Part shown: positions 12,892 to 36,690 of the stretch, piece by piece
How the letters are laid out: each line of letters opens with the position of its first letter
Numbering within the stretch: the stretch's first letter is position 1
NCBI GenBank assembly: GCA_965653495.1
Contig: CBFHAJ010000001.1
Coordinates: forward strand, 1-62,980
Length of the DNA: 62,980 nt
Reading direction: 5' to 3'
Source of the DNA: an uncultured bacterium
Lineage (GTDB): Bacteria > Gemmatimonadota > Gemmatimonadetes > Gemmatimonadales > GWC2-71-9
Position numbers and translations under genes: made by a program
The notes under the pieces: model-generated
Database searches by the model: none
Seen by the model: only the letters and a program-made list of their open reading frames with translations
What the model was told of the DNA's origin: nothing

Positions 12892-14813
12892 TTCGCGTCG
12901 AGCACGTCGCGCACCTTGCGCGCGAGCGCGGCCGGGGTGAAGGGCTTCTGGAGGAAGTTCAGTCCCGGCTCGAGCATCCCGTGGTGCACGATGGCGTCGT
13001 CCGTGTACCCCGAGACGTAGAGCACCTTCGTGGCAGGACGCGTCAGCGCGAGCCGCCGCGCCAGGTCGCGGCCACTCGCCCCGGGCATCACGACATCGGA
13101 CACGAGCAGGTGAATCGACTCTGCGTGCGCGGCAGCCAGTGCGAGCGCCTGCGTCGCGTCTTCGGCCTCGAGCACGGTGTAGCCGAGCTTCTCGAGGAGC
13201 GCCTTCGCGAGCGGCCGGAGTATCGCGTCGTCCTCGGCGAGGAGGATCGTCTCCGTGCCTGTCACCGCCTCCGCCTCGCGTGGTGGCGCCACGCGCTCAG
13301 CGGGCGCGTCGACCCGTGGCAGATAGATCTTGAACGTCGTGCCCCGGCCAGGCTCCGAGTACACCCAGATGTAACCGCCCGACTGCTTCACGATGCCGTA
13401 TACCGTCGAGAGCCCGAGGCCGGTCCCGCGACCCTTCTCCTTGGTGGTAAAGAACGGCTCGAAGATCCGGGCCTTGGTCTCGGGCGTCATGCCGCTGCCG
13501 GTGTCGCTCACTGCGAGCATCACGTAGCGGCCGGGAGTCACCGGCTGGTGCAGCTCGGCGTACTGCTCGGTCAGGTCCGCGTTCGCGGTCTCGACGATGA
13601 GCTTGCCCCCTGTCGGCATGGCGTCGCGTGCGTTGACCACGAGGTTCATGATCACCTGCTGGAACTGTCCTGGGTCGGTGCGCACATTGCCAGTTTCGAC
13701 AGCCAGATTGAGACGCACCTCCACGTCTTCGCCGAGCAGTCGTCGCAGCATCTTGTCGACCTCTTCGACCAGATCGTTCAGGCTCAGGACGATGGGTTCG
13801 AGCACCTGCTGGCGGCTGAAGGCGAGCAGCTGCCTGGTGAGCGAGGACGCGCGTTGGGCAGCCTTGCGAATCTCTTCGAGGTCCTGCCGCGCCGGGCTGG
13901 CGGCTGGCAGTTCCTCCAGCATCAGGTCGGCGTACCCGAAGATGGCGGTCAGCACGTTGTTGAAGTCATGCGCCACGCCACCAGCCAAACGGCCGATGGC
14001 CTCCACCTTCTGCGACTGGCGGAGCTGCTCTTCCAACTCGCGACGCTCCGTGATGTCGCGATAGTTGGCGACGATCGCTCGCACGCCGGGCTCGGAGAGC
14101 AGGTTTGTGAACGTGCTCTCGCAGAGTCGCCATGACCCGTCTTGGTGCCGTACTCGCGCCTCGAGCCCGACCTTGCGCGCTTCGGAGCGCAGTCCCTTCA
14201 CGAACTGAGGTTGGACCTGCGCCAGATCGTCCGGGTGGAGGAGGTCGAGGGCGTTTCGTCCCACCAGCTCCGTGGGGTCGTAGCCGAGGATCGCGGCGGT
14301 CGCGGGGCTGGCGTACGTTATGCTGCCGTCCGACCTGAACAGGGCGATCCCATCCGCGCTGTTCTCGATCAGCGCACGGAAACGCTGCTCGCGCTCCGCC
14401 AGCGCTTCCTCCGCCGCTTTGCGCTCGATCGCATAACGCAGGACACGCGCCAGGAGGTGCCCCTCAATCCGCCCCTTTACGACGTAGTCCTGCGCACCCG
14501 AACGCACGGCCTCGAGTGCCACGCGCTCGTCGTCGAGGCCGGAGATGATGACGATGGGCTCGTGTGGCAGCCTGCGTCGCGCCCGCACGAACGTGTCGAG
14601 CCCGTTGCTATCGGGGAGCCCCAGGTCCAGTAGCACGACGTCCACAGCGGCGTGGTCGACGCGATCCAGGGCGACCTCAAGGCGATCGACACGCTCGAGG
14701 TCGAACGCAACCGCCTGCACCTCGCGAAGCAGCTCGAAGATGAGCCGCGCATCGCCCGGATTGTCTTCCACGAGCAGCACTCTGATCGGGCGCACGCCGG
14801 CCGAGGCGGTCAC
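12888..14813 (-). CDS. Hybrid sensor histidine kinase (REC-PAS-HisKA-HATPase-REC)
   Basis: 641 aa. N-terminal REC ([16 protein letters not shown]), a PAS domain, H-box GGVAHDFNNVLTAI, N/G boxes (NLVVNARDAMP, DTGSGM, GTGLGLS) and a C-terminal REC (ILLAEDD..VSDVVMPG). Confidence 0.9.
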   Translation of the reverse strand: MTASAGVRPIRVLLVEDNPGDARLIFELLREVQAVAFDLERVDRLEVALDRVDHAAVDVVLLDLGLPDSNGLDTFVRARRRLPHEPIVIISGLDDERVALEAVRSGAQDYVVKGRIEGHLLARVLRYAIERKAAEEALAEREQRFRALIENSADGIALFRSDGSITYASPATAAILGYDPTELVGRNALDLLHPDDLAQVQPQFVKGLRSEARKVGLEARVRHQDGSWRLCESTFTNLLSEPGVRAIVANYRDITERRELEEQLRQSQKVEAIGRLAGGVAHDFNNVLTAIFGYADLMLEELPAASPARQDLEEIRKAAQRASSLTRQLLAFSRQQVLEPIVLSLNDLVEEVDKMLRRLLGEDVEVRLNLAVETGNVRTDPGQFQQVIMNLVVNARDAMPTGGKLIVETANADLTEQYAELHQPVTPGRYVMLAVSDTGSGMTPETKARIFEPFFTTKEKGRGTGLGLSTVYGIVKQSGGYIWVYSEPGRGTTFKIYLPRVDAPAERVAPPREAEAVTGTETILLAEDDAILRPLAKALLEKLGYTVLEAEDATQALALAAAHAESIHLLVSDVVMPGASGRDLARRLALTRPATKVLYVSGYTDDAIVHHGMLEPGLNFLQKPFTPAALARKVRDVLDAK

Positions 14814-15250
14814 GGCAGTCTCACGATTTGCAGCCAGAATTGCTCGATCGAGTTGACTGCCTCGACGAACTGCTCCAGGCCGATTGGTTTCGTGACGTAG
14901 GCGTTGGCGTGCAGCCGGTAGCTCTGCTGCACGTCGCGTTGCTCCCGCGAACCGCTGACCACGACGACCGGGATGTGCCGGAGCTGGGGGTCGGCCTTGA
15001 TGTCGGCCAGCACCTGCCGGCCGTCCTTCCCCGGAAGGTTCAGGTCGAGGAGGATCAGGTCCGGAAGGCGAGCGTCGGCAAAATGACCTTCCCGCCGCAA
15101 GTACGCGAGCACGTCTGTGCCGCTCGTCAGGACGCGCACGCGATTACGCACTTTGGCGCGTTCGAGCGCGCGGGTCGTGAGGGCCGCGTCGTCGGGACTG
15201 TCCTCGACCAGCAAGACGTCGATCGGCATGCCGCTCAAGGCCCCACTCAT
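14810..15250 (-). CDS. Single-domain response regulator (REC only)
   Basis: Trimmed from track ORF 14810..15280 to the ATG at 15250, which forms an ATGA overlap with the upstream REC gene. Motifs: [29 protein letters not shown]. Confidence 0.85.
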
Positions 15251-15690
15251 ATCCGTGACAGCTTCACGATCTCGAGCCAAAAGTGCTCGATCGACCCTAC
15301 CACCTTGAGAAACTGCTCCAGATCCACCGGCTTGGTGACGTACGCATTGGCCCGCAGGCGATAGCTCTCGGCGATGTCCTTCTCGGCCTGCGACGTCGTC
15401 AGAATGACCACCGGGATGTGCTTGAGGCCGTCGTCGTTCTTGATCTCGTCCAGCACCTCCCGCCCATCCTTTTTGGGGAGGTTCAGATCCAAGAGGATGA
15501 GGTCAGGCGTGGGAACGGAGGCGTACTTGCCCTGCCGCCGGAGAAAGGCCATTGCTTCGACACCATCGAGTGCCACGTGCAGGTTGTTCCGCACCTTCGC
15601 GTCGCGCAGGGCCTCACGCGTCAGGCGGGCGTCACCGGGATTGTCCTCGACGAGCAGGATCTCGATCGGTACGAGCGTGGGGGCGGTCAT
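15247..15690 (-). CDS. Single-domain response regulator (REC only)
   Basis: 147 aa. Motifs: [29 protein letters not shown]. The start lies 2 nt after the stop of the upstream kinase. Confidence 0.9.
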
Positions 15691-15692
15691 TC

Positions 15693-18095
15693 TCAGGCCT
15701 CCGTGCCGGCCGGGAGCGTGAAGGAGAACGTGGAGCCCTGCCCAGGTGATGACTCGACCCAGATGCGGCCGCCATGCCGCTCCACGATCTTCTTCGCGAT
15801 CGCCAGCCCGATCCCCGTGCCCGGGTAGTCTTCCTTCCCGTGAAGCCGCTGGAAAATGATGAAGATCCGGTCGAAGTACTGCGGATCGATCCCGATTCCG
15901 TTATCGCGGACGCCGAACACCCACTCACGGTCGCGTCGCTGCGCAGAGATCTGAACTTGCGGGCGACCGGGACCGCGGAATTTGAGCGCGTTGGAGACGA
16001 GATTAAGAAACAAGTGCTCGAGCTGGCCAGCATCACCAGAGACCATCGGTAGCCCGTCGCGAGTCACGGTCGCACCCGTCTCCTCAATCGTGAGCTTCAA
16101 GTGCGCGAGGGCATGGTCAACCACGGCGCCCACGTCGGTCGGGGCGAATGCGGCACCGCGCGTCCCGACCCGGGAGAACGCCAACAAGTCCTCGATGAGG
16201 CGCTGCATCCGGAGCGCGCCGTCGAGTGCGTACCCGATGAACTCGTCAGCGTCGGCATCGAGCTTCCCCTTGTAGCGCTTTCCCAGGAGCTGCACATAGC
16301 TGCCCACCATGCGGAGCGGCTCCTGGAGGTCGTGTGACGCCACGTACGCGAAGCGCTCCAGCTCTTCGTTCGAGCGACGCAGCTCCTGCTCGGCGCGCTT
16401 GCGCTCGGTGATGTCGACGACCGAGGCGAGGACGAACAGCCCCTCGTCCGTCTCAAGCGGGTTGAGCCCGATCTCGACGGGGACTTCGCGGCCGTCCTTG
16501 CGGACGCCGAAGAGATCGCGACCGGCCCCCATCGCCCGGGTCTGCGGGCTGCCGAAAAACGCCTCCCGATACCCGGGGTGCCGTTCCCGGAGCCGTGCGG
16601 GCACGAGCACTTCGATCGGTCGACCCAGGAGTTCCTCGCGCGGATACCCAAAGAGCCGCTCGATCTCCCGGTTCACGAGGACGATCTTCCCCTCGCGGTC
16701 GATCATGAGCATGCCGTTCGGGGACGACTCGACCGCGGCCCGGAAGCGCGCCTCTGCTCGCCTTCGGGCACTGATATCGACGACGGACGCGAGGACGAAC
16801 ATGCCTTCGTCGGTCGCGAGGGGATTCAGACCGATCTCGACGGGGACCTCGCGGCCGTCTTTGCGCCGGCCGAATAGTTCGCGCCCCGCCCCCATCGCCC
16901 GAGCTTCCGGACTGGAGAGGAACCCGGAGCGCAATTCCGGGTGTCGGGCTCGTGTCCCTTGCGGGACGAGCGTCTCGATCGCACGTCCGAGGAGCTCATC
17001 GCGAGAGTAGCCGAACAGCCGCTCGATCTCGCGGTTCACGAGGACGATCGTCCCCTCGCGATCGACCATGACCATGCCGCTCGGGGACGACTCCACCGCC
17101 GCTTCGAACCGCTCCTGGGCGCGCTTACGCTCGGCCAGGTCCCGCGCTCGACCGGCCATCTCCGCCTCAAGTCGCTGCCGTGACTGATGCGTGAGGCCCC
17201 ACGCCCCCACGCCACCCGCCGCCACGAGCGCCAACGCGATGATGCTGACGCCCGCGAGGAAGCTCGTTGCGGGAGCCAGCACACGCTCGCGGGACAACTC
17301 TACCAGAAGAATCCAGGGAGTCCCCGCGATTGGGGTTGCTCGGGCGATGTACATCGTGCCGCTGTGGGCATAGTCGACGATGTCGCGCTGGGTATGCAGG
17401 TCGACGGGCGGGGGCGCGACCGGACCGGACAGGTCAGTCCACACATCGCCTCGTTCATTCCCGATACGCAGACCCGCATCGGGCCCGATGATCTCGGTGA
17501 GCTGCCGAGTCGCCTCCGGCTGTGCGTGTACCCGTCGCCAGTTGACCACGTAGCCGGCCGGTGGGCCGCCGCTCGAGACGGTCGCGATCACCGGAAACAC
17601 CACAGTGTCTCCGATCTGGCGTAGGTCACCGAACGCACGGCCGCCCCCTGTCGCCGCGGACGCCATAAGCCGCCGCGTCGCGCTTGTATCCCCGACGGGT
17701 AAGGCCCACCCCGTGGTCAGCAGGCGGTCGCCCGCAGAACGCCACAGTTCGACCGCTGCGTTGAGTGAGTCGCGTGTTCTCAAGGCTTGCAGGGCCCGCA
17801 CCGCCGCCGTTCGACTCGCTGGGCTGGGGCGAACGCTTGCGAGATAGGTCCGAATCGCTGGATCGCTAGCGACCTGTCGCACCTCGCCGAATCGCTGTGG
17901 CGCTCCGGCGGTCAGGCTCGCTTCGAGCTGCTTCGTCACGCGCTGCAGGTGCTCGCGGGCGGCACTGAGTAGGACGCTTCGAACCTTCGCGTAGGCGAGC
18001 CAGGAGAACGCGCCGATGGCAACCACGAGCAGGCCGCTCATGAGCAACGGGAGTCGGAGCTCGAGCGGCTTGGTGGCGAGCCGGAGGCGCATCAT
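15693..18095 (-). CDS. Membrane sensor histidine kinase (TM-periplasmic domain-TM, two tandem PAS domains, HisKA, HATPase)
   Basis: 800 aa. Two hydrophobic helices flank a roughly 240-aa extracytoplasmic region. Two PAS units of about 121 aa are near-duplicates. H-box [14 protein letters not shown]; G boxes DNGIGI and GTGIGLAI. Confidence 0.9.
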
Positions 18096-19371: not shown

Positions 19372-19445
19372 GCGCCAGTAGCTCAGCTGGATAGAGCGTC
19401 GGCCTCCGGAGCCGAAGGTCCCGCGTTCGAATCGCGGCTGGCGCA
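19372..19445 (+). tRNA. tRNA-Arg (anticodon CCG)
   Basis: Folded by hand: acceptor GCGCCAG/CTGGCGC, D-arm GCTC-AGCTGGATA-GAGC, anticodon stem TCGGC/GCCGA with loop CTCCGGA, T-arm CCGCG-TTCGAAT-CGCGG, discriminator A. 74 nt. Confidence 0.9.
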
Positions 19446-25257: not shown

Positions 25258-25362
25258 GCGAACGCTCCGGTGATGAGGGGATGATTGGGAGCCGTTGCAC
25301 GATAACGACTCGGCAGGGCCGTTGCACAGCCGCGAGTGGAGGTCATCTTTCTCGCCCTGCAC

Positions 25363-27588
25363 ATGCACCGTCCGGTTGGGGTGATCGTCGCGCTGGCCAT
25401 CGCGGGTCTCCTCACCAGAACCGCGGCGGCCCAGCAGTCGAGCGCGACCATTCGCGCCGCACCCTTGCGCTCGGCGGTCACGCTCGACGGCACGCTCGAC
25501 GAGCCGGCCTGGGCCTCGGCTGACTCGATCAGCGAGTTCCACCAGCGCGAGCCGCTGGCCGGCGCGCCCGCCACCGAGCGCACCGTCGTCAGGGTGGCGC
25601 ACGACGCAGACGCGCTGTACATCGCGGTGCGCTGCGGCGACTCGAGTGTACCGCAGGTGCGCGCCAGCCAGCTGCGGCGCGACGCGGATTTGTCGAGCGA
25701 CGACCACGTCATCCTCCTGATCGACAGCTTCAACGACCGGCGCGGGGCCTTCGTGTTCGCCACCAATCCGAATGGCGCGATGTGGGACGCGCAGTTCGCC
25801 GGCGTGGACGAGCTGAACGAGAACTGGAACGGCGTGTGGGACGTCGCCGTCGCGCGCGACAGCGCCGGCTGGACCGCAGAGTTCCGCATCCCGTTCCGCG
25901 CCCTGCGGTTTCGCCCGGGGGAGGCCGGCGACGTGACGTTCGGATTCAACGTCGGACGCTTCATCCGCCGCAAGAACGAAGAGGACCTGTGGCGCTCCTA
26001 CGGGCGGGCCCAGGGGCTCTACCTGCTGAGCAACGAAGGGACGATCACCGGCCTCGGCGACCTGCACCGTCCCCACGACCTCGAGCTGTATCCCTACGCC
26101 CTCGGCCGGGCGGTGGAAACCGAACACGACAGCCTGGGCGCTCCAACGACCGGCGGCTTTCTGGGCGGCAAGACCGGCGTCGACGCCAAGCTCGCCGTTT
26201 CGCCGACGCTCACGGCGGACCTCACCGTGGGTACGGACTTCGCGCAAGTCGAGGCCGACCAGCAGGTCATCAACCTGACCAGCTTCCCCATCTTTTTCCC
26301 CGAGAAGCGCGAGTTCTTTCTCGAATCAAGCGGGCTGTTCGACCTCGGGACCCCGGGTAAGGTACAGCTGTTCTACTCGCGCCGGGTCGGACTCGACACC
26401 AACGGGGTGCCCGTGCCGATCGACGTCGGCGGGCGGGTGTACGGACGACTCGGGGGAGGGCCCTGGAAGCTCGGCATTCTCGACACGCAGACAGGAGGGA
26501 CCGACCCGGGCAACGACGCCGTCGTGCGTGTCCAGCATGACCTGTTTGACCGCTCATACCTCGGCGCGATCGCGACCCTCCACGCCCGACCCAACGGTCA
26601 GGGTGTCGAGCGAGCGGGCGGACTCGACATCGACCTACCGCTGATCGTCCACGGAGCGAACCTGGAGCCCAAGCTGTGGATCGCTGGCAGCCAGACTCCC
26701 GGACTGCCCGGCACGGCGCTCGCGTGGCGGCTGTCGACGGACAACCCGAACGACCTGTTCGACAACTTCGTGTCGCTCTACTTCGTCGACTCGAGCTTTG
26801 CCCCGCCGCTCGGCTTCGTGCGCCGGACGGGGATCTGGGAGACCACTGGTCATGTCGACTTCATGCCTCGACCAGGAGTGCTGGGCATCCGTCAGCTCGA
26901 CTTTACTTTCCCCATCCCCAGCTGGGACGTCATCGCGAGGCAGACCGGCTCGCCGCTCGTGAGCGCGGACTGGCAGAACGCCTGGTTCGAATGGCGCATG
27001 CTCGGCGGCGACCGCCAGAACGGCGATCACTTCGAGGTCAACTTCCAACGCCTCATGGATGCGCCGAGCGACACGTTCACGATCTTCCCCGGGGTGGTGA
27101 TTCAGCCTGGGCGGTATTGGTGGTCGCGCTACGAGCTGCAGTATCTGACGAGCCCGGGCCGCCCCGTGAGCCTCGCGGCGTTCGTGAACTGGGGGCAGTT
27201 CTATGGCGGGCACAGCACCGACCTCGAGCTCAGCGCGGTGTGGCGTGGGAGTGGACATGCGATCGTGAGTAGCAGCCTGACACGGACCAGCGCGCGGCTC
27301 CCCGTCGGAACGTTCACGGCGACGCTGTCGGTGAACCGGCTGGAGTACGACTTCACCACCCGAGCGAGCCTGCTCGCGTTCGTGCAGTATGACAACGAGG
27401 GCCAGCGCGTCGACTTCAACGTGCGGCTGCACTGGATCCCGCTGATCGGCGACGACGTCTACCTCGTGTGGAACTCGGGCTTCACCACCGACCCGCTGTC
27501 GCCGTTCCGGTTTCCGGACACGCGGGCTCTGGCCAGGCCACTCAACGGCGCGGTCATTCTCAAGGTGGTGCACCGTCTCACGCCCTGA
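25363..27588 (+). CDS. CBM9-like / DUF5916-type large secreted or outer-membrane protein
   Basis: Signal peptide MHRPVGVIVALAIAGLLTRTAAAQ, then ..TLDGTLDEPAWASADSISEFHQREP..ALYIAVRC.. and a long beta-rich C-terminal region. The start at Met10 of the track ORF is my choice. Confidence 0.7.
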   Translation: MHRPVGVIVALAIAGLLTRTAAAQQSSATIRAAPLRSAVTLDGTLDEPAWASADSISEFHQREPLAGAPATERTVVRVAHDADALYIAVRCGDSSVPQVRASQLRRDADLSSDDHVILLIDSFNDRRGAFVFATNPNGAMWDAQFAGVDELNENWNGVWDVAVARDSAGWTAEFRIPFRALRFRPGEAGDVTFGFNVGRFIRRKNEEDLWRSYGRAQGLYLLSNEGTITGLGDLHRPHDLELYPYALGRAVETEHDSLGAPTTGGFLGGKTGVDAKLAVSPTLTADLTVGTDFAQVEADQQVINLTSFPIFFPEKREFFLESSGLFDLGTPGKVQLFYSRRVGLDTNGVPVPIDVGGRVYGRLGGGPWKLGILDTQTGGTDPGNDAVVRVQHDLFDRSYLGAIATLHARPNGQGVERAGGLDIDLPLIVHGANLEPKLWIAGSQTPGLPGTALAWRLSTDNPNDLFDNFVSLYFVDSSFAPPLGFVRRTGIWETTGHVDFMPRPGVLGIRQLDFTFPIPSWDVIARQTGSPLVSADWQNAWFEWRMLGGDRQNGDHFEVNFQRLMDAPSDTFTIFPGVVIQPGRYWWSRYELQYLTSPGRPVSLAAFVNWGQFYGGHSTDLELSAVWRGSGHAIVSSSLTRTSARLPVGTFTATLSVNRLEYDFTTRASLLAFVQYDNEGQRVDFNVRLHWIPLIGDDVYLVWNSGFTTDPLSPFRFPDTRALARPLNGAVILKVVHRLTP

Positions 27589-27600
27589 ACGCCGGCTCAC

Positions 27601-28809
27601 ATGCTGACGCCTGACGGCCGGCTGCTGTTCGCCACCCGCTCCACGCGGTTGTTCGCGTATGGCGCGCTGTCGGTCGTGCTGGTGTTCTATCTGACGAGCC
27701 TGGGGCTGAGCGCAGCTCAGACGGGTCTGCTGCTCACGCTCACGCTCGCCGGGGACACCGTAGTCTCGCTCTGGCTCACTACACGAGCGGATCGTCTCGG
27801 CCGGCGGCGCATGCTGCTCGTGGGCGCCGCGCTCATGGCCGCCGCCGGCGTGGCCTTCGCCTGGACCAGGAGTTTCCCGCTCCTGGTCGTGGCCGGCACG
27901 ATCGGGGTGATCAGCCCCAGCGGCAATGAGGTGGGGCCGTTCCTCTCCATCGAGCAGGCGGCGCTCTCGGAAGTCGTCCCGGATGGGAGGCGCACCGCCG
28001 CGTTCGCCTGGTATACGCTCGCGGGATCGTTCGCGACCGCCTTGGGAGCGCTCGCGGGGGGGATGCTGTCGCATTCGCTGCAACGGGTGCCCGTGACGCC
28101 CGTGCAGAGTTACCGTGCAGTAGTCGTGCTCTACGCCGCGCTGGGCCTGGTGCTGGCGGTGTTGTTCGGGCGGCTCTCATCGAGGGTCGAAGTCAAGGCG
28201 CCCACGCCGCAGGCACCGTTCGGGATCACCCGGTCACGCAATGTCGTCCTCAAGCTCGCGGGCCTGTTCTCAGTCGACGCCTTTGCGGGCGGCTTTGTGG
28301 TGCAGAGCTTCGCGGCCTACTGGTTCTACCTGCGGTTCGGTGTCGATCCTGCGGCGCTGGGCGCGATCTTCTTTGGGGCAAACCTGTTCGCGGGCGTCTC
28401 CGCCTTGCTCGCGTCACGGCTCGCGGCGCGCTACGGCCTCGTGAACACGATGGTGTTCACGCATCTGCCGTCCAACGTGCTGCTGATCCTTGTGCCACTG
28501 ATGCCGACGCTCTCGTTAGCGGTGCTCGTGTTGCTGCTGCGCTTCAGCATCAGTCAAATGGATGTGCCTACGCGGCAATCGTACACGATGGCGGTGGTCC
28601 GCCCGGAGGAGCGGTCCGCCGCAGCGGGAATCACGGGCGTGGCCCGCACCACCGGGGCGGCGATCGCCCCCGCGCTGGCAGGCTGGATGTACGCCCGGCC
28701 GTCGCTCGTGAACCTGCCGTTCTTCATCGCGGGGGCGCTGAAGATCGTGTACGACCTGCTGCTGTATCGTGGGTTTGTGAGACTGCGGCCGCCTGAGGAA
28801 GCGAAGTAG
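27601..28809 (+). CDS. MFS transporter
   Basis: 402 aa, about 12 hydrophobic segments, and a motif-A-like sequence (TTRADRLGRRRML). Confidence 0.85.
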   Translation: MLTPDGRLLFATRSTRLFAYGALSVVLVFYLTSLGLSAAQTGLLLTLTLAGDTVVSLWLTTRADRLGRRRMLLVGAALMAAAGVAFAWTRSFPLLVVAGTIGVISPSGNEVGPFLSIEQAALSEVVPDGRRTAAFAWYTLAGSFATALGALAGGMLSHSLQRVPVTPVQSYRAVVVLYAALGLVLAVLFGRLSSRVEVKAPTPQAPFGITRSRNVVLKLAGLFSVDAFAGGFVVQSFAAYWFYLRFGVDPAALGAIFFGANLFAGVSALLASRLAARYGLVNTMVFTHLPSNVLLILVPLMPTLSLAVLVLLLRFSISQMDVPTRQSYTMAVVRPEERSAAAGITGVARTTGAAIAPALAGWMYARPSLVNLPFFIAGALKIVYDLLLYRGFVRLRPPEEAK

Positions 28810-30214
28810 CCAGCGTCCCGGTCGTCCCGAAGCCCTTCCGCGTCATTTCGCCCCACTCGCGCCGCTGCCGCACCACCGACCAGAACGCCTTGAGGCGCCA
28901 CCACACGGTACGTTGGCGGTACCCGAACGTCTCGACCAGCGCGTCACTCAACAACAGCACCAGGTCGCTGACCCGGCGGTAGCGGCGGAAGCTGACTTCC
29001 TCCAGCACGATCGCCCACAGGGAGAGCAGCATCCCGTACCCCCACGCCACGAACAGAAACAGCAGGGCGAACTGGACGTCGAGCATGTGCAGCGCGAGCC
29101 CGGCGATCGTCGTGATGTAGCCCACCACTTCGATCACCGGCGCCAGCATCTCACCGAATGTGAAGAACGGCATCGCGATGACGCCGACGCGTCCGTACCG
29201 CGGGTTGAACAACATGCTCTTGTACAGCCACATGGCCACGATCAGCCCACGATGCCAGCGCTCCCGCTGCCGCGCGAGCACGCGGCCCGATTCGGGGACC
29301 TCAGTCCACGCCACCGGATCGGGAACGAACGGAATTTCGTAGCGAATCTTGCGCTGGCGCAGGTAGCGGTGCAGCCGGACGACGAGATCCAGATCCTCGA
29401 CGATGCTCGAGGCCCGGTACCCCCCGATCGCGCTCACGTATTCCTTGTTGAACAGCCCGAACGCTCCGGAGATGATGAGGCTGCCACCCAGCTTGTTCCA
29501 CCCCAGGCGTCCGAACAGGAACGCGCGCAGATACTCGACCACCTGGACGCCGGGGAGCAAGCGCCGCGGCACACGCGCGTCGACGATCCGGCCGTCTTTC
29601 ACGGTGCAACCATTCGCGACGCGCACCGTGCCGCCCACCGCCGCCACGCGGCGCCCCATGAGGAACGGCCGGGTGAGCCGCAGCAGCGCGTCGGACTCGA
29701 TCAGCGTGTCCGCATCCACGGCGATCACGTAGGGGAACCGGCTGGCGTTGATGCCGGCGTTGAGCGAGTCGGCCTTGCCGCCGTTCTCCTTGTCGATCAC
29801 CAGCAGCCGGGTGCGGGAGCGGGAGCGATACACCGCGCGCACCGGCTTGGTAGGGATCGTGTCCGCGTAGGTGCGCGGCACCTCGTAGAGATCGAACGCC
29901 TGCCGCAGCCGGTCCATTGTGTCGTCCTTCGAGCCGTCGTTCATCACGATGACCTCGAAGCTGCGGTACTCGAGGGTGAGGATGGCGGTGATGCTCGCCT
30001 CGATGGTCGCGCTCTCGTTGTACGCGGGGGCGAGGATCGAGACCGGTGGCAGGGCGTCGCTCCCCAAGATGCGCTGGAAGTCCTCGTTCTCCGCGAGGCG
30101 CGTCTGCTCCCAGATCTCCGGGATCGACAGCACCAGCAGCAGTGCATAGAACGAGTTGAGGGCGACGAAGTACACCAGGATGACGACGCCGCCGACGTGG
30201 ATGAAGGTGCTCAC
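28724..30214 (-). CDS. Processive family-2 glycosyltransferase (PgaC/IcaA/NfrB-like polysaccharide synthase)
   Basis: Trimmed from the 811-aa track ORF to the GTG at 30214, which forms a GTGA overlap with the HEAT gene. Motifs: ..SILAPAYNES.., MNDGSKDDT, AVDADT, GAFGLFNKE and RQRERWHRG (the QxxRW processivity motif), with TM helices on both sides. Confidence 0.85.
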   Translation of the reverse strand: MSTFIHVGGVVILVYFVALNSFYALLLVLSIPEIWEQTRLAENEDFQRILGSDALPPVSILAPAYNESATIEASITAILTLEYRSFEVIVMNDGSKDDTMDRLRQAFDLYEVPRTYADTIPTKPVRAVYRSRSRTRLLVIDKENGGKADSLNAGINASRFPYVIAVDADTLIESDALLRLTRPFLMGRRVAAVGGTVRVANGCTVKDGRIVDARVPRRLLPGVQVVEYLRAFLFGRLGWNKLGGSLIISGAFGLFNKEYVSAIGGYRASSIVEDLDLVVRLHRYLRQRKIRYEIPFVPDPVAWTEVPESGRVLARQRERWHRGLIVAMWLYKSMLFNPRYGRVGVIAMPFFTFGEMLAPVIEVVGYITTIAGLALHMLDVQFALLFLFVAWGYGMLLSLWAIVLEEVSFRRYRRVSDLVLLLSDALVETFGYRQRTVWWRLKAFWSVVRQRREWGEMTRKGFGTTGTLATSLPQAAAVSQTHDTAAGRTRSSAPPR

Positions 30215-31272
30215 GCGGCGTACTCGGCCAGGGCCTGGGGCGACAGGCCGAGGATGAGGCGCGCCATGTCGCGCGCCCCAGCGTCTCCACCCACTTCGGC
30301 CGCCAGCAGCGCGTTGCGACCCGCGGCCCCGAACCGGGTGAGCGCCAGCCCGCCGCGCAGCCGCACCCACCATTCCGGGTCGCGCAGCGCGTCGCGCACG
30401 GCGGGCAGGGAGCCCGGGTCGGCGATCATCCCGAGTGAGCGGACGGCCTGCGCGCGGGCCGGCCACGCCTGGTCCTGCGCGAGCAGCGTGAGGGCGGCGA
30501 CCGACTCGGCGTGCGGGAAGCGGCCGAGTCCCCGGGCGACCTGCGTCCGGACCTCCGCATCGGGGTGCGTGGCGAGCGTGGTGAACGGCTGGCGCAGCGC
30601 GGGCTCCTGGAGCCGCCCTGCAAACTCGATGATGCGGGGCAGCCTGGGATCGTCGAGCCGGCGAAACAGCTGCTGCAGATGGCGCAGCACGGCCGGCCGC
30701 GCGTTCTTGAGCACGCTGGCGTAGTAGGCCTGGACCGTGGGGCCGAGGAAAGGGAGCCGGTCCAGGGCCGCGGTCACGAGCAGCGGGCTCGGCAGCCGCT
30801 CGAGCGTGGTCGCGGCGGCGAGCTGCACGGCGGAGTGCGAATCGTTCAGCAGGCGCAACAAGCGGCCGATGTCGTATTGCGTAGCGGCCACCGAAAGAAA
30901 GCGCGCGCACTCGAGCCGCTTCCACCATCGGGCGGAGCTCGAGTTGGAGCGGACGATGCGGGCCCACCACTGCGTCTCGAGCCCCCGCGCCAGCTCGTCC
31001 CAACGCTGGCCCGTGATGCGCGTGGACCACGTCACCAATCCGTCGATGGCGAGCGAGACCGGCAGGCGGCCGAGCGCCCGCAACACTTCCTCGGGACGGA
31101 CTTGCCCGAGGGTCCAGCGCTGCATGACGCCGTCGAGGGCGGTCCGGCGCGGGCGCCACTTGGCGCTGCGCCGCAGGCGGATCCAGCGGTTCAGGATGAT
31201 CAGGACAATGAGCGCGGCGAGCAGCACGCCCTGCACCACGGCGACGACGACGAGCAGCTGGTGGCTCTTCAC
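30211..31272 (-). CDS. Membrane-anchored HEAT-repeat protein
   Basis: 353 aa. N-terminal TM helix (LLVVVAVVQGVLLAALIVLIIL), then PBS-lyase/HEAT-like repeats (..HPDAEVRTQVARGLGRF.., ..DPEWWVRLRGGLALTRFG..). It has GTGA overlaps at both ends. Confidence 0.75.
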   Translation of the reverse strand: MKSHQLLVVVAVVQGVLLAALIVLIILNRWIRLRRSAKWRPRRTALDGVMQRWTLGQVRPEEVLRALGRLPVSLAIDGLVTWSTRITGQRWDELARGLETQWWARIVRSNSSSARWWKRLECARFLSVAATQYDIGRLLRLLNDSHSAVQLAAATTLERLPSPLLVTAALDRLPFLGPTVQAYYASVLKNARPAVLRHLQQLFRRLDDPRLPRIIEFAGRLQEPALRQPFTTLATHPDAEVRTQVARGLGRFPHAESVAALTLLAQDQAWPARAQAVRSLGMIADPGSLPAVRDALRDPEWWVRLRGGLALTRFGAAGRNALLAAEVGGDAGARDMARLILGLSPQALAEYAA

Positions 31273-32030
31273 CGCGCCACCCAGCGTTTGATCTTCTCCA
31301 GCGCGACCCGCAGACTGATCGGCTTCACGAGATAGTCGAGCGCCCCGGCCTCGAGACCGCGGAGCTGCTCCTCCTCAGTGCCGCGTGACGCGGTGAACAC
31401 GACCCGATACGTAGCCGGGCGCTCCCGCTCGAGCGCGTCGAACATCGAGTAGCCGTCGAGCCCGGGCAAATCGACCGCCAGGAGGAGCAGCGGGTGCGTG
31501 CCCTGCACGTCGAGATCGAGCAACGCCTGCAATGCCTCGCGCCCGTTGCGATAGGTCGCGAAGCGGTAGCCGTGCGCGTTCAGGCCATACTCCAACAGCT
31601 CGGCGAGAGACGGGTCGTCTTCGACGAAGATCACTTCGGGCACTGTGCGCTCGGCCGTGGGTAGGGGGGGCGGGTGAGCCGCCCGCGCAACGGCGGGCGG
31701 GACTTCCACTCCGAGCATCTCGGCGAGCCGGGCGACGAACCAGTGCGCGATCGAGCCGCGATCCACCTCGCGGTCACCGGGTCGGGCGATCCAGTCGTTG
31801 ACGGTCGCCTCCATGCCGGCCGCAAGGCGCGATGCCTCGGCGAACCGGTGGGAGCCGCCGAATCCGCGGATCGAGCGGATCTCGCGCCCCAGGGCGCCGA
31901 GCGCGTTGGGGTCGTCGCCGGCGGCAGTGAGCCGATCGGCGAGCGTGACGAGCACGCCCAGCTGCGCCCGCATCCGCTCGAGAAACTCCGCGAGCGACCC
32001 CGGAGGCAGCTCGGAGGGCGTCGCGGTCAC
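31269..32030 (-). CDS. Response regulator with an N-terminal Hpt-like four-helix domain lacking the phosphorylatable His
   Basis: Trimmed to the GTG at 32030 (GTGA overlap). REC motifs: VIFVEDDPS..LLLAVDLPGLDG..YLVKP. The N-terminal ..LGREIRSIRGFGGSHRFAEASRLAAGME.. aligns with the Hpt HxxKG region but has Arg at the His position. Confidence 0.75.
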   Translation of the reverse strand: MTATPSELPPGSLAEFLERMRAQLGVLVTLADRLTAAGDDPNALGALGREIRSIRGFGGSHRFAEASRLAAGMEATVNDWIARPGDREVDRGSIAHWFVARLAEMLGVEVPPAVARAAHPPPLPTAERTVPEVIFVEDDPSLAELLEYGLNAHGYRFATYRNGREALQALLDLDVQGTHPLLLLAVDLPGLDGYSMFDALERERPATYRVVFTASRGTEEEQLRGLEAGALDYLVKPISLRVALEKIKRWVAR

Positions 32031-33517
32031 AGGCCCTGAGTGAACCGCAGGCCGAGGGAGCGGTACCGGAACGGTCCGGGACGCGGGCCTGCCGCCGCGG
32101 TCGCCGCCGCGCTGTTGGTGATCGCGCCGACCAGCGCGAGCTCGTTGTGGTCGCCCCACCCGCGCGAGACCGTCATGCCGATGTGCCACTCGGTCTGATG
32201 CGGCGCGCCCACGGCGATCTGCTGTGAGCCCACGCCCCCCTCGCCGCGCACGCCCCACCGCTCCCGCTGCACCGCGTAGACCGCGCGCCCCTCGATCACG
32301 GTGAAGCGGTCCGGGGCGAAGTAGCCGTTGGGCGCGCTGGTCCGGAAGCCCATGATCCGGGCCGACGGTCCCGCCTGCAGGCCCGCGGCCAGCGGCGCGA
32401 GCACGGTCAGTGTCGCCGAGTAGCGCCGATTGCGGCTCGTGTCCGAGATCCAGGCGCCCCCCGCGCCGCCCGAGATCGACCAGCCGGCGGTGGGAGAGAC
32501 GTCGACGGTCAAGTCCACGGCGTCGATCATGAACCCGCTGGCGATCAACGGCGCGGTCTCGTCGAAGGCGCTGCGGTTATAGTCGACGCTCAGCGTCGCG
32601 TAGCGCGCCGGCCGGACGCCGATGCCCAGCTCCGCCGTGAGCGGCGTGTGCGAAGGGCCCACCTCGGGCTCGAGCCGCCGCACGCCCAGCCCGGCGTGGA
32701 CGAGCGCGTCGCCGAGTGCGGCGCTCACGGACCCGCCCGCACCAAGGCTCGTCCCTCCGATTCCCTGGAGCGTTGCGCGGCGCCAGCCCGCATGCAGCGC
32801 GCCGCGGCCGTCCTCACCGAACGAGGTGCTGAGCGTCGCTTCCTGCGCGACGACGTCGTTGTGATCCGAATCGCCCGCGCCGTCCACCGTGGTCTCGACC
32901 TCGGGACGGAGCGCCGCCCGCAGCGCCCGCTCCAGGTCGAGGGCCGCGCTATCGCCCGGCGCGAGAGCGCGCGCCCGGGCGACGTACGTCTGAGCGAGGA
33001 TGGGATGGCCCTGCCAGTATAGGATCTGCGCCAAGCCGAGCAGCAGCTCGGGATCGTCGGGCGCAGTGTCGAGCGCGGCGCGCCACAGGCGCTCGGAGCG
33101 ACGCAGGTCTCCGCTCCAGGCGACGACGCGCGCCCGGCCCGCGAGGGCGTCAGGCCGCCGCGGCGACCGCGCCAGCACGGTGTCGTACAGCGCTTCGGCC
33201 GCGTGCCTGCGCCCCGCCCAGGATAGGGCGGCAGCCTGACCGACCATCACGTCCTCGTCGCGCGGCGCCAGCCGACGTGCCCGCGCGAACCGCTCGAGCG
33301 AGCGGGTGAGCTCGCCGCCCCAGCTGTCGAGGATGGCGAGCCGGTACCACGCCTGCACGTTGAGGGAATCGGTCGCGAGCACGCGGGCATAGGCGGCGCG
33401 CGCCGCGCCGTAGTCCCCGCGGCGGAACGCCTCGTCGGCGGCGGGCAGCTGCGCCGCCAGGAGCCGCGCCAGCGCGCCCGACAAGAGGGCCAGCACGCTG
33501 AGGCTGGGTATCCGCAC
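32027..33517 (-). CDS. Outer-membrane TPR plus beta-barrel protein (PgaA/NfrA/YaiO-like polysaccharide export porin)
   Basis: 496 aa. Signal peptide, about 200 aa of TPR-like repeats (..GDYGAARAAYARVLATD.., ..GRRHAAEALYDTVLARSP..), then a Gly/Ser/aromatic-rich beta region ending ..YRSLGLRFTQGL. Confidence 0.7.
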   Translation of the reverse strand: MRIPSLSVLALLSGALARLLAAQLPAADEAFRRGDYGAARAAYARVLATDSLNVQAWYRLAILDSWGGELTRSLERFARARRLAPRDEDVMVGQAAALSWAGRRHAAEALYDTVLARSPRRPDALAGRARVVAWSGDLRRSERLWRAALDTAPDDPELLLGLAQILYWQGHPILAQTYVARARALAPGDSAALDLERALRAALRPEVETTVDGAGDSDHNDVVAQEATLSTSFGEDGRGALHAGWRRATLQGIGGTSLGAGGSVSAALGDALVHAGLGVRRLEPEVGPSHTPLTAELGIGVRPARYATLSVDYNRSAFDETAPLIASGFMIDAVDLTVDVSPTAGWSISGGAGGAWISDTSRNRRYSATLTVLAPLAAGLQAGPSARIMGFRTSAPNGYFAPDRFTVIEGRAVYAVQRERWGVRGEGGVGSQQIAVGAPHQTEWHIGMTVSRGWGDHNELALVGAITNSAAATAAAGPRPGPFRYRSLGLRFTQGL

Positions 33518-33565
33518 GCACTACAGTAGGAATCACCCGCCCTCCGGCGCAAATTTCGAGCGCGG

Positions 33566-34918
33566 ATGCGACATCCTCGCTTCTGGGCGGCTCGCCGCCT
33601 AGCTCCCGTGCTGTGGAGCCTGTTCCTGTTTGCGCCCCCCCTCCTCCTCCCCCTGGCCGCCCAGGGAGACGGGGCGGCCGGGGGGGGGGGAGCCGCCGAG
33701 CGCTGGATCGTGCGGCAGGTCACCCCCAACCGCACGGTGCCCTTCCCCGAGGCCACCCGCCGCGGGCTCGTCCTCAGCTACGGCCTGTCGCCCCGTACGT
33801 CCCCGCACCTGTTCCACCGCTCGGCGACGTACGACGACGCCCTCGCGGCGCTGGTGTTTCTCGTCATGCGCGACCCCGATCGGGCGGCGTTCACGCTCCA
33901 CGCGTTGGCGCGCCTGGTGCGGGCCGACGGCAGCCTCTGGTTCAGCTACAACACCATCAACGAGTGGCCCAGTGAGGGCGACCATGAAAGCGCGCTGGTG
34001 CGCGCGGGAACGGTCAGCTGGGTCGGCTACGCGTTCGCGTTCTACCTGGCGCGTGTGCCGGCGCGGGGCGGCGAGGCGGATGCCCGCGAGCGCGCGTTGT
34101 TTCTCGAAACCGCTCGCCGGCTCGCCGGCTACGTCGTCTCGCTCCAGGTGCGCGACTCGAACGACCTCCGCGACGGTCTGGTGCGCCTCGGGTACGGCAC
34201 AATCAATCTGCGCTACGACTCCGTGACCAAGCACGTCGTCGAGCAATACGTGGACGCCCCCGCTCAGGGGATCAGCACGGAGAACAACATCGCCACCTGG
34301 TTCTTCCTGCGGTTGCTGGCGGTGGTGTCGGGCGAGACGCGCTGGAGCGACGCGGCCGACCGGATCGGGCAGGGGCTGATGCGCTCGTGGAGCGATCGTC
34401 TCGACCAGTTCACCGAAGGCTTCGAGAGCGGCGGCGCGCGCGACACGGCTCGGGCGCTGGACTGCGCGTCGCTGGGCGTGCTGTTCCTCGTGAGTCGCGG
34501 CGAGACCGCGAAGGCGAGCGGGGCGCTCGCCGCGATCGAGCGAGTGTATCGGAGCCGTGGCAGCGGTACGACCGGATATCGGCCCTACAGCGACCGGCCG
34601 ATCTATGACGACAGCGCGGTCGGTCAGTTCTATTTCCCGCGCGATCCCACCAAACAATGGCGCGAGCTGCCCCTGGTCTGGTCGGAAGGGTCGCTCCAGG
34701 TCGCGCTGGCCGCCCTCCGCGCCGGGCGCACCGCTCGCGCTCAGCAAGTGGTCCGCGGCCTGCGACCATTGCAGGACCAAAGCGGCGGCGTGCGCTACGC
34801 CACTGTCGACGTGCCGTTCCTCATGACCAATGCTCCCAGCATCGCGGGAACCGCATGGCTGATCCTGGTGACGCGGGCGCTCGCGGGCGACTCGCTGGCC
34901 CAGGCCATATGGCGCTGA
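33566..34918 (+). CDS. Secreted (alpha/alpha)6-barrel-like protein, putative polysaccharide hydrolase
   Basis: 450 aa. Signal peptide, then repeated helix-hairpin signatures with conserved aromatics (..TYDDALAALVFL.., ..GTVSWVGYAFAFY.., ..ENNIATWFFL.., ..SLGVLFLV.., ..GTAWLIL). The function is tentative. Confidence 0.6.
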   Translation: MRHPRFWAARRLAPVLWSLFLFAPPLLLPLAAQGDGAAGGGGAAERWIVRQVTPNRTVPFPEATRRGLVLSYGLSPRTSPHLFHRSATYDDALAALVFLVMRDPDRAAFTLHALARLVRADGSLWFSYNTINEWPSEGDHESALVRAGTVSWVGYAFAFYLARVPARGGEADARERALFLETARRLAGYVVSLQVRDSNDLRDGLVRLGYGTINLRYDSVTKHVVEQYVDAPAQGISTENNIATWFFLRLLAVVSGETRWSDAADRIGQGLMRSWSDRLDQFTEGFESGGARDTARALDCASLGVLFLVSRGETAKASGALAAIERVYRSRGSGTTGYRPYSDRPIYDDSAVGQFYFPRDPTKQWRELPLVWSEGSLQVALAALRAGRTARAQQVVRGLRPLQDQSGGVRYATVDVPFLMTNAPSIAGTAWLILVTRALAGDSLAQAIWR

Positions 34919-36690
34919 GCCCGTGGCTCGCCGCGGTTGCGCTGCTGGCACCTGGCCAGCAGCCCTCGCACACAGCCTGGGGGGTGGCGGTGCTGGAGGC
35001 CGGCACCAGCCGGGACGCCCGCCAGGAGCAGCTCGCGGTGCGCGACTGTTTCGAGCTGATGGGGATTCCGTACGAGGCCACGCGCAGCGTGGAGCAGGCG
35101 GTGCGCCGGCCGCTCGTGGTGGTCAGTGGCATTCTCACGAACAACCTGTTCACCGCGGGCGAGCGGGAAGCGCTGTACGCCTACGTGGAGCGCGGCGGGG
35201 TCGTGCTCGCTACCCAGGTACAAGGGGGCAGCTTCTTCACGCTGTTCGGTATCAGCGGCGCGGCCACCAGCCGGACGAACTTCAGGGTCAACTTCGGCTC
35301 CGCGAGCGACCCCGTCCTGCGGTATGTGAATCGATCGGAAGAGCGCACGATCTCTCTGGGAGACCCGGCGCTGTATCGCGAGACCGTCTGGTCCACCGAA
35401 TACGCGGCCGCTCCCGGAGCCGCCGTGCTCGCCCAATACCCGAACGGCACTGCTGCCGTTACGGTCAACGCGTATGGTCGCGGGTACGCGTATGCGTTGG
35501 GTCTGGGCTTCAAGGAGACGACGCTCATCCCCCAGCTAGCCCGCAGCTTTGAGGCCGCGCGCCACTGGATCAACTGGTTCGAGCCCTCGGGCGACGTGTT
35601 CCGGCTCATGCTGCGCGCCTTGTACGAGAACACCGTCCACCCGTTCGTCCTCGTCCACACGGTCCCCCAGGGCAAGCGGACAGGCCTGTGCCTCTCGCAC
35701 GACGTCGACGCGGTGGAATCGTTCCGGAACTCGGTGGTGTTCGCGCGCATGGAGAACGGGCTGGGCGTGCGCAGCACGTTCTTCGTGACGACCAAGTACT
35801 TCACCGACTCGACCGACATCGGCTACTACTCGCCCGACCGCGTCTCCTTCATCCGCGCGCTGCGGGCGCAAGGATTTGAAGTCGGATCGCACTCGGTCAG
35901 CCATTCCCTGACGTTCGAGGATTTCCCGCCGGGGTCCCCGCGGGTGGACCTGGCGGACTACGATCCGGCCCGGCCGACCATCTACGGTGAAGTGCGGGTC
36001 TCGAAGCAGCTGCTCGATCGCGACCTGCACCAGCGAACGGTGGGGTTCCGCTCCGGTTATCTGCGCTTTCCCGACGAGCTGCTCGAGGTGCTGGAGCAGT
36101 CCGACTATCTGTTCGATTCCAGCGTGTCGGCCCAGTGGGTGCTCACCAACTACCCGTTCTTCGGATTTCGGCGGCGCGCGCTCGGCAGCCCGCGCTCGCG
36201 CATCGTGGAAGTGCCCGTCACGCTGGACGATTCGCGCGGCGAGCTGCGGACGCGCGAGTTCCTGACGGCGAACTCGGAAGACGAAGCCCTCCACACGTGG
36301 CTCGATGTGATCCGGGCCAACGGGGAGAACAACGCGATCTCGTGTCTCCTGATTCACCCCACCGACACGACGTTCAAGCTCGCGACCGAACGCCGCCTGA
36401 TCCAGGCCGTGCGCGGAGACTCGACCTGGATCGGCGCAGTGGGTGAGCTCGCGGCGTTCTGGCGCGGTCGCGCCCGCCTGCGTCCCGTCGTGCGGCTGGA
36501 TGCGGACGGCCGACCCATAATCGTGCTCGCGAACCTGAAACGGGCCGGCGTACCCGCAGCGCAGTCGTTGGTAGTCGAGACACCGGCTGCAAAACCGGTC
36601 CCGCGAGTGGTCGATGCCGCGGGGAAAGCGGTCACTGTCCGCGCGCGTGCCAGCGGCGACAGAACGGTCCTCCGGCTCGCCCCGTTTTAG
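34909..36690 (+). CDS. Polysaccharide deacetylase (CE4/NodB-like) with an N-terminal accessory domain
   Basis: In-frame ATG at 34909 overlaps the upstream stop by 10 nt. Motifs: ..CLSHDVDAVES.., ..GFEVGSHSVSHS.., ..LLIHP.. The N-terminal roughly 250 aa resemble a class-I glutamine-amidotransferase-like/beta-galactosidase-trimerisation-type fold (weak call). Confidence 0.7.
   Translation: MALSPWLAAVALLAPGQQPSHTAWGVAVLEAGTSRDARQEQLAVRDCFELMGIPYEATRSVEQAVRRPLVVVSGILTNNLFTAGEREALYAYVERGGVVLATQVQGGSFFTLFGISGAATSRTNFRVNFGSASDPVLRYVNRSEERTISLGDPALYRETVWSTEYAAAPGAAVLAQYPNGTAAVTVNAYGRGYAYALGLGFKETTLIPQLARSFEAARHWINWFEPSGDVFRLMLRALYENTVHPFVLVHTVPQGKRTGLCLSHDVDAVESFRNSVVFARMENGLGVRSTFFVTTKYFTDSTDIGYYSPDRVSFIRALRAQGFEVGSHSVSHSLTFEDFPPGSPRVDLADYDPARPTIYGEVRVSKQLLDRDLHQRTVGFRSGYLRFPDELLEVLEQSDYLFDSSVSAQWVLTNYPFFGFRRRALGSPRSRIVEVPVTLDDSRGELRTREFLTANSEDEALHTWLDVIRANGENNAISCLLIHPTDTTFKLATERRLIQAVRGDSTWIGAVGELAAFWRGRARLRPVVRLDADGRPIIVLANLKRAGVPAAQSLVVETPAAKPVPRVVDAAGKAVTVRARASGDRTVLRLAPF

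Follow-up and report, generated by a model that had tools for sequence, protein, structure and literature searches.

The synthase-dependent systems that secrete cellulose, alginate, poly-N-acetylglucosamine (PNAG), Pel, Nfr and Pss polysaccharides are switched on post-translationally by cyclic di-GMP (c-di-GMP). Here we describe a six-gene locus at positions 28724-36690 of a 62,980-nt stretch of DNA from an uncultured soil bacterium of the Gemmatimonadales (contig CBFHAJ010000001.1; the whole stretch is called the window, and window positions are given in its numbering). With a probability that we put near 60%, the locus is a synthase-dependent exopolysaccharide secretion system belonging to a widespread family, whose core is a processive family 2 glycosyltransferase (GT2) together with a single-pass cytoplasmic HEAT-repeat subunit. 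The logic of such a system, which an earlier note on this DNA had proposed, was borne out, as a processive GT2, a tetratricopeptide repeat (TPR) outer membrane protein (OMP), a CE4 deacetylase and a glycosidase-like protein were all found. The six open reading frames (ORFs), translated from the intervals listed here, run without interruption for 496, 353, 253, 496, 450 and 593 residues.

28724..30214, minus strand: predicted GT2 processive synthase, 496 aa (Pfam GT2 families; fold by AlphaFold2 (AF2) and Foldseek)
30211..31272, minus strand: membrane-anchored cytoplasmic HEAT-repeat subunit, 353 aa (HEAT_2, 97.7 bits)
31269..32030, minus strand: degenerate Hpt domain (residues ~1-120) and receiver (REC) domain (~130-253), 253 aa (Response_reg, 61 bits)
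32027..33517, minus strand: TPR-OMP, secreted TPR protein (~22-200) whose C-terminal ~290 aa are a presumed outer membrane β-barrel, 496 aa (Pfam TPR)
33518..33565, no strand: intergenic gap from which the TPR-OMP operon and the P5-CE4 pair diverge, 48 nt
33566..34918, plus strand: P5, secreted (α/α)6-barrel protein, predicted glycoside-hydrolase-like, 450 aa (AF2 and Foldseek)
34909..36690, plus strand: P6 or CE4 protein, with GH42M-like N-terminal domain, predicted CE4 deacetylase domain and C-terminal β-rich domain, 593 aa

With PgaABCD/IcaADBC the locus shares a processive GT2 carrying the D, DxD, ED and QxxRW motifs, a single-function inner membrane partner encoded beside the synthase, an OMP of the TPR-plus-porin style, a CE4 deacetylase and a glycosidase-type activity, here predicted. 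The partner, however, is a 353-aa HEAT-repeat protein rather than the small PgaD/IcaD; the deacetylase has a GH42M-like N-terminal domain, and the hydrolase is a separate (α/α)6 protein instead of the C-terminal domain of PgaB. Whereas the PgaC-PgaD contact is stabilised by c-di-GMP (PMC7112194), a receiver domain is found in its place here. The best NCBIfam model for the synthase was PgaC_IcaA (TIGR03937), with 132.3 bits against a cut-off of 422.3 and residues 133-346 aligned, and the TPR protein reached 38.5 bits against PgaA (TIGR03939; cut-off 366.65), in the TPR region only. No NCBIfam PgaB match was obtained, the CE4 domain being present and the architecture otherwise different, and no small ORF of the PgaD/IcaD type lies between or beside the genes. 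Because of the low PgaC and PgaA scores and the missing PgaD, the locus is not a PgaABCD equivalog.

The BcsA-BcsB-BcsC-BcsZ system resembles the locus in that BcsA is a structural match to the synthase, both being membrane-integrated processive GT2 proteins. In BcsC, TPR repeats are joined to a β-barrel, and the periplasmic hydrolase BcsZ belongs to family GH8 and has an (α/α)6 fold. The present locus differs in that it lacks PilZ and BcsB as well as any GH8 sequence match, and its CE4 partner speaks for an acetylated amino-sugar polymer and not a glucan. The Pss and Pel loci also pair a deacetylase with a glycoside hydrolase; the Pel synthase is the GT4 enzyme PelF, and Pss has the BcsB-like PssD and not a HEAT subunit. 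In relatives of the present locus, a degenerate-GGDEF protein is encoded immediately before the synthase, in the position taken by PelD of Pseudomonas and by PssE, the degenerate-GGDEF c-di-GMP receptor of the Listeria Pss system (PMC4125290). The regulator in the window, in contrast, is devoid of GGDEF, and receiver domains are no part of Pss or Pel.

In the NfrB-NfrA-YbcH system of the Escherichia coli N4 receptor polysaccharide, the GT2 protein NfrB works with the outer membrane protein NfrA and is locally controlled by a dedicated signalling protein (PMC8669469, PMC8669472), so that a GT2, an OMP and a local signalling protein are common to both. NfrB has a C-terminal c-di-GMP-binding MshEN domain, whereas the six proteins here matched no MshEN model, and the Nfr system has neither a HEAT nor a REC component. 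A single-domain response regulator of Myxococcus activates polysaccharide synthesis by binding a biosynthetic enzyme (PMC12802240); a receiver that is devoid of an output domain and acts post-translationally on a polysaccharide enzyme is the mode proposed here. The Myxococcus pathway is, however, of the Wzx/Wzy type and the target is the priming phosphoglycosyl transferase, whereas here a processive synthase would be reached via a HEAT adaptor. Pfam and NCBIfam scans of the six proteins matched no PilZ, MshEN or GGDEF model, and the literature searches found no published description of a synthase system with a HEAT subunit, nor of HEAT together with a receiver in any system. The statements of the earlier note that the locus is free of PilZ, MshEN, GGDEF and PgaD and that it could not be matched to a described system thus both stood.

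The conserved unit is REC-HEAT-GT2, which is present in about 80 species of Gemmatimonadales. When 185,579 species genomes were scanned with the HEAT alignment, 84 relatives were obtained, of which 80 loci were kept; with L001 and L002 these make up 82 Gemmatimonadales loci. REC, HEAT and GT2 occur in all 82 wherever the contig reaches far enough, except for REC in L032, and HEAT and GT2 are always adjacent. Identities among the genome-scan loci are 71-83% for GT2, 50-81% for HEAT and 41-85% for REC. All but two of the 80 kept loci are labelled Gemmatimonadales or Gemmatimonadota metagenome-assembled genomes (MAGs), and the other two are very short contigs. Exceptions in the labels are L038 and L048, short contigs with the trio that were assigned to Casimicrobiaceae and Vicinamibacterales bins; since their proteins share 61-62% identity with those of Gemmatimonadales, the contigs are probably mis-binned.

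Translation and reading of the junctions reproduced the layout given in the earlier note, with its six gene positions, a GTGA stop/start overlap at all three minus-strand junctions, a divergent gap of 48 nt and a 10-nt overlap of P5 and CE4. Longer alternative ORFs are present for REC and CE4. The shorter starts are preferred because the ORF upstream of HEAT stops within a few bases of the HEAT start in 77 of 78 relative loci (with the same 4-nt stop/start overlap in nearly all), and because the CE4 gene overlaps P5 by 4-10 nt in relatives. As to the individual proteins, the earlier note had named a polytopic GT2 with a processivity motif and DxD, a transmembrane (TM)-anchored HEAT protein, a pseudo-Hpt receiver protein, TPR repeats in the product of 32027..33517, an alpha/alpha-barrel-like protein at 33566..34918 and a CE4-type deacetylase, and the data given below agree with each of these assignments. 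It had also tied REC and HEAT to the synthase, which was supported by the occurrence of the trio in about 80 species and by fusions into single polypeptides elsewhere. Co-conservation of all six genes, on which its proposal depended, was not found: only the trio is conserved, and TPR-OMP, P5 and CE4 form a separate module.

The GT2 protein matches the Pfam families Glyco_tranf_2_3 and Glycos_transf_2 and is built of one N-terminal hydrophobic or TM helix, a GT-A domain in the cytoplasm and, towards the C-terminus, a cluster of TM helices. Its motifs are D93, D167-A-D169, E273-D274 and Q316-R-E-R-W320, and D93, D167, D169, D274, Q316, R317 and W320 do not vary in 50 members of the family at 38-56% identity. 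The AF2 model (pLDDT 91) has as its top Foldseek match the hyaluronan synthase (HAS) of Chlorella virus (TM-score 0.59/0.60), followed by XlHAS1 of Xenopus, ScChs1 of yeast, an oomycete chitin synthase and BcsA (4p00, 4hg6); HAS and chitin synthases match the fold better than BcsA. With invariant motifs and a model that matches synthases of the HAS, Chs and BcsA type, the protein has the topology expected of a processive synthase, on which the earlier note had made its proposal depend, and it models as a membrane-integrated one. The last ~32 residues (~465-496), which overlap the neighbouring transporter gene, are disordered in the model and unconserved, and the GT2 of relatives ends earlier.

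The HEAT protein has a single strong TM segment close to its N-terminus (residues 8-26), then an Arg-rich juxtamembrane stretch and then the HEAT repeats (HEAT_2 at 97.7 bits). It has 529 homologues at 63-90% identity and a signature S-x-R-W-W-K-R-L-E. The window protein aligns over its full length to a HEAT protein from Binatia and to the N-terminus of a HEAT-GT2-TPR fusion (P0263), and these alignments include the signature in the form S-x-R-W-W-[KR]-R-L. Our best inference is that the HEAT protein, anchored in the membrane, binds the synthase and serves as its cytoplasmic adaptor.

The family extends well beyond Gemmatimonadales. An exhaustive GT2 search gave 1,449 clusters (50% identity) at E<1e-30, and many of the best matches are 950-1,400 aa long and were seen by Pfam to be fusions. 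These include HEAT-GT2 proteins (P0339, P0322 from Heliophilum fasciatum, P0402 and P0410), the HEAT-GT2-TPR protein P0263, and P0408, in which HEAT, GT2 and REC form one polypeptide. HEAT-subunit synthases occur in Gemmatimonadota, Binatia, Firmicutes and many uncultured lineages. Of 21 metagenomic loci of the GT2 family that were surveyed, 11 have HEAT immediately upstream of GT2, 7 have a REC-containing gene upstream, and 7 have a TPR-OMP whose TPR domain is homologous. Chance gene order was considered as an explanation of the arrangement and was rejected because of the conservation of the trio together with the fusions. A protein of ~526 aa that has no Pfam match is encoded beside GT2 in Binatia (L091 4433-6013, directly downstream) and in a metagenomic locus (L103 6212-7879, divergently adjacent), and is a candidate for a further component; it is absent from the window.

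The receiver domain of the third trio protein scores 61 bits against Response_reg, and its phospho-acceptor residues D138, D139, D187, T213 and K236 are kept in 100% of 72 homologues. The N-terminal domain reaches only 17.3 bits against Pfam Hpt, under the cut-off of 24.6. At position 52, the His of the HxxKG motif is present in 93% of these relatives and is replaced by R in the window copy; the Hpt consensus of the relatives is AHKIRGSAGSFGF and the window copy reads IRSIRGFGGSHRF. Domain scans of the REC protein found no DNA-binding or enzymatic output domain, and none of the regulators encoded upstream of HEAT-GT2 in the relatives has a DNA-binding domain.

Direct control of the synthase by the receiver, through the HEAT adaptor, is the best-supported mechanism, because the trio genes are stop/start-coupled, conserved together and fused elsewhere, and because the regulators have no DNA-binding domain. 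In this mechanism, the receiver would dock on the HEAT scaffold, and the phosphorylation state of Asp187 would switch polymerisation and translocation by the synthase on or off, so that control would be post-translational and not transcriptional.

Several observations weigh against this picture of the system. The Hpt site is degenerate in the window copy, and the close relatives L083 and L032 carry HEAT-GT2 but no REC gene at all. The degenerate GGDEF domains and HD_5 neighbours of relatives are a hint of signalling by nucleotides, instead of or besides phosphorylation. TPR-OMP, P5 and CE4 are not within 10 kb of most trio loci, and the P5-CE4 pair occurs in Aminicenantes and another lineage with no synthase nearby. 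Finally, no homology match in the Pfam, PDB-profile, YaiO or OMP comparisons backs the barrel domain of the TPR protein.

The first two of these points raise the question whether the receiver protein is a decaying remnant in this genome, with the system constitutive or controlled only transcriptionally. Substitutions affect 7 of the 20 positions of the Hpt motif, among them the phospho-His and three residues with 90-98% conservation elsewhere, and L083, which lacks REC, is the closest relative with the same accessory genes (HEAT 82%, TPR 89% and CE4 90% identical to the window). We nevertheless regard a remnant as quite improbable, as the REC ORF is intact and overlapped at both ends, the receiver half is 76-85% identical to relatives with all five phospho-acceptor residues kept, and the closest relatives L084-L086 (HEAT 90% identical) retain REC. 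A vestigial REC is possible for the window genome, not for the family. The absence of REC from L083 and L032 means that it is dispensable in at least some lineages, and the dead Hpt of the window together with the loss of REC from these two sister loci suggests an ongoing relaxation of the regulatory input in the lineage to which the accessory module was added.

Since the phospho-His site of the window Hpt has decayed, the receiver must either depend on another kinase or Hpt or act unphosphorylated. In three closely related loci (L002, L009 and L017), the REC gene abutting HEAT is accompanied, ~1.5 kb upstream, by a second Hpt-REC paralogue that is complete, and the HEAT-abutting copy has lost the Hpt histidine, like that of the window. 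Elsewhere in the window (11542-18095, minus strand) is a phosphorelay cluster that includes an MHYT-PAS sensor, two single receivers, a hybrid histidine kinase of the order REC-PAS-HisKA-HATPase-REC (12888-14813, minus) and a PAS histidine kinase (15693-18095, minus). The hybrid kinase is an obvious candidate for feeding the receiver. Such a kinase normally requires an Hpt partner, and no Hpt-like domain was seen in the window other than that of the exopolysaccharide locus, which is degenerate.

The regulators of more distant relatives bear on a different possibility, that HEAT-GT2 is gated by c-di-GMP, through HEAT, through the conserved C-terminal region of GT2 or through the I-site of the degenerate GGDEF domains of relatives, while the receiver only tunes this input. 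The window copy would then be stripped down, with a sensor unrecognisable to current domain models. In Binatia (L091) the order is REC-GGDEF*-REC, HEAT, GT2 and an unknown gene, with a TPR-YaiO OMP further on, where the asterisk marks a degenerate domain. Heliophilum (L092) has GGDEF*-REC-DivIVA before HEAT-GT2, L174 has ODP-GGDEF*-REC before HEAT-GT2 with a REC-HD_5 protein nearby, the regulator of L094 is Hpt-REC-REC-GGDEF*-REC, and that of L108 likewise contains a degenerate GGDEF domain. This architecture is like that of the c-di-GMP receptors PelD and PssE (for PssE, PMC4125290), and L091 keeps an exactly spaced RxxD I-site. A divergent gene for a 308-aa membrane HD_5/HD protein, of the HD-GYP-type family, lies ~1.1-2.9 kb upstream of HEAT in 60 of 61 Gemmatimonadales loci (among L001-L082), and the Arg-rich juxtamembrane segment of HEAT is conserved. 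In the window, however, neither a GGDEF gene nor the HD_5 gene stands beside the locus, and an Rfam scan of the window found no c-di-GMP riboswitch. A correctly spaced I-site is kept only in L091, three of the five degenerate GGDEF domains that were read (L092, L108 and L094) have no RxxD I-site, and L100, L103 and L107 have only a bare single-domain receiver upstream. Taken with the lack of PilZ or MshEN matches in the six proteins, this makes gating by c-di-GMP in our judgement unlikely, though by no means negligible.

The upstream GGDEF proteins were also considered as active cyclases, and this was rejected because all five GGDEF motifs read are degenerate (AGPSQF, EGPKF, GGPLF, NGPNF and WPGGRL). 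The first four, from L091, L092, L108 and L174, share the form xGPxF, which suggests a dedicated non-catalytic GGDEF subfamily. By its domain order, the Hpt-REC protein of Gemmatimonadales looks like both ends of the L094-type protein minus the middle.

The earlier proposal of phosphorylation in place of c-di-GMP was too strong in view of the degenerate GGDEF in the REC proteins of relatives and of the HD_5 neighbours in most Gemmatimonadales loci. More broadly, it is conceivable, and we advance it only tentatively, that HEAT-subunit synthases form a distinct class spanning phyla, in which a receiver fed by a phosphorelay gates the synthase directly via HEAT and the degenerate xGPxF-type GGDEF and Hpt variants are alternative input modules for one REC-HEAT-GT2 core.

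The window shows two modules brought together, as the trio and the TPR-OMP/P5/CE4 genes are mostly apart and P5-CE4 stands alone in other lineages, and the modules are joined in at least three gene orders: OMP-REC-HEAT-GT2 / P5-CE4 in the window, the same without REC in L083, and OMP / P5-CE4-HEAT-GT2, also without REC, in L032. Only about ten trio loci have a TPR-OMP homologue within 10 kb, and P5 and CE4 are that near to trio genes only in L032 and, by separate lookup, in L083. Most trio loci have a distinct conserved neighbourhood with a small TPR protein nearby, and a gene for a 252-aa YaiO-type β-barrel directly follows GT2 in 34 of 63 loci (for example, L002 12471-13229). This YaiO gene and the separate small TPR protein encoded upstream may be the split counterpart of the fused TPR-OMP.

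Such a distribution would also be expected if two unrelated units were merely neighbours, REC-HEAT-GT2 making a glycan of the envelope or one that stays with the cell (such as an oligosaccharide, or a polymer that is periplasmic or anchored to lipid) and the divergent TPR-OMP and P5-CE4 genes serving the uptake or degradation of an external acetylated polysaccharide. Besides being apart in most genomes, the units are on different contigs of one MAG, SMAG_U13715 (the trio in L015, the divergent TPR-OMP and P5-CE4 triple in L090). P5-CE4 occurs with no GT2 within 10 kb in Aminicenantes, beside a GH20 hexosaminidase, and in L089, and the identity of P5 and CE4 across phyla (55-67%) suggests a mobile self-contained pair. 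Against this, the units came together on at least three occasions, each with a gene order of its own, and TPR-OMP is stop/start-coupled into the synthase operon in both the window and L083. OMP genes with a homologous TPR lie beside HEAT-GT2 in Binatia and in 7 metagenomic loci; L103 holds a CE4 homologue (E 4e-66), a TPR-YaiO OMP beside it, and REC, HEAT and GT2 in one 9-kb cluster; and P0263 fuses TPR straight to the synthase. The repeated independent joining, L103 and P0263 weaken the chance-neighbour explanation, and we hold it to be very doubtful.

The predicted secretion system would comprise both modules. The TPR protein has a signal-peptide-like N-terminus and clear TPR repeats by Pfam. 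Its TPR part is homologous to that of the TPR-YaiO OMP of Binatia (hhalign probability 97.5%) and to OMP genes of other HEAT-GT2 loci, where hmmsearch matched the TPR part only. The C-terminal ~290 aa gave no Pfam match at E≤1 and no PDB-profile match, and hhalign against 34 YaiO-like neighbours gave a probability of 0.7%; the dominant hydrophobicity period of this region is 2, of the β type. It is presumed, from this period and from the position in the locus, to be an outer membrane β-barrel.

No Pfam, NCBIfam or PDB sequence match was found for P5, which has homologues at 52-67% identity in several phyla. Its AF2 model (pLDDT 90) is an (α/α)6 barrel with the polysaccharide hydrolase MmpH (7qsj) as the best Foldseek match (E 5e-11, TM-score 0.6/0.76), followed by GH63 and GH94, and D90, E226, E239, D299 and E374 are invariant carboxylates. 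Judged from the model, P5 is a predicted glycoside-hydrolase-like protein outside described families. P6 scores 30.4 bits against Polysacc_deac_1 (cut-off 23.1) and 23-26 bits against Glyco_hydro_42M, with a flavodoxin/GATase-like N-terminal domain; single-sequence and profile PDB searches with it gave nothing useful. All its metal and catalytic motifs are kept: HDxD, HSxxH, R and LIHP are invariant among homologues, and H264, D265, D267, H328, H332, R381 and H483 do not vary in 7 homologues including the distant L103. P6 is accordingly annotated as a predicted CE4-type metal-dependent deacetylase. The P5-CE4 pair is 50-67% identical across distant phyla with the 4-nt overlap kept (Aminicenantes L087/L088, and L089), a sign that the two genes spread horizontally as a self-contained unit; further matches carry the names Terriglobia and Gammaproteobacteria, and it is in L087 that the pair is near the GH20 hexosaminidase gene.

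By likeness to PgaA/PgaB, BcsC/BcsZ and PssZ, the nascent chain would cross the periplasm along the TPR domain and leave via the C-terminal barrel of TPR-OMP, the secreted CE4 protein would partially deacetylate it, and the (α/α)6 protein would trim or clear it. PgaC, NodC, chitin synthases and HAS, which are the nearest synthases to GT2 by profile or fold, transfer GlcNAc. As a CE4 enzyme is attached as well, an N-acetylhexosamine polymer is the best guess; the product of GT2 is probably rich in N-acetylhexosamine, and a partially de-N-acetylated hexosamine polymer is a reasonable guess for the secreted chain.

On the left, a convergent gene for a major facilitator superfamily (MFS) transporter shares the last 86 nt of the GT2 gene (28724-28809), and on the right the locus is flanked by queE-queC-queF. 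Left of the MFS gene (25336-27588, plus strand) is a 750-aa protein with CBM9-like and DUF5916 domains, possibly carbohydrate-related. A promoter scan gave no σ70-like match in the 48-nt divergent region, and the locus showed no regulatory element in promoter, terminator and Rfam scans; in the whole window, Rfam matched nothing but two tRNA genes (7866-7940 and 19372-19445, plus strand). GC content is 71-74% across the HEAT, REC and TPR genes (30001-34000), compared with 63-69% in most of the first 30 kb.

A synthase wired to a HEAT partner and a two-component receiver would mean that polymer secretion can be gated in a second way, and would give a function to a HEAT-repeat subunit that is now without functional annotation. 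If a receiver fed by a phosphorelay does gate the synthase in this class, it would be, as far as the literature searches show, the first described phosphorylation-gated exopolysaccharide synthase. The natural fusions HEAT-GT2 and HEAT-GT2-REC are ready constructs for structural and biochemical work, and with them the proposed mechanism can be tested directly. As the family is common in soil Gemmatimonadales, an abundant group with hardly any cultured members, it may shape soil aggregation and the biofilm matrix.

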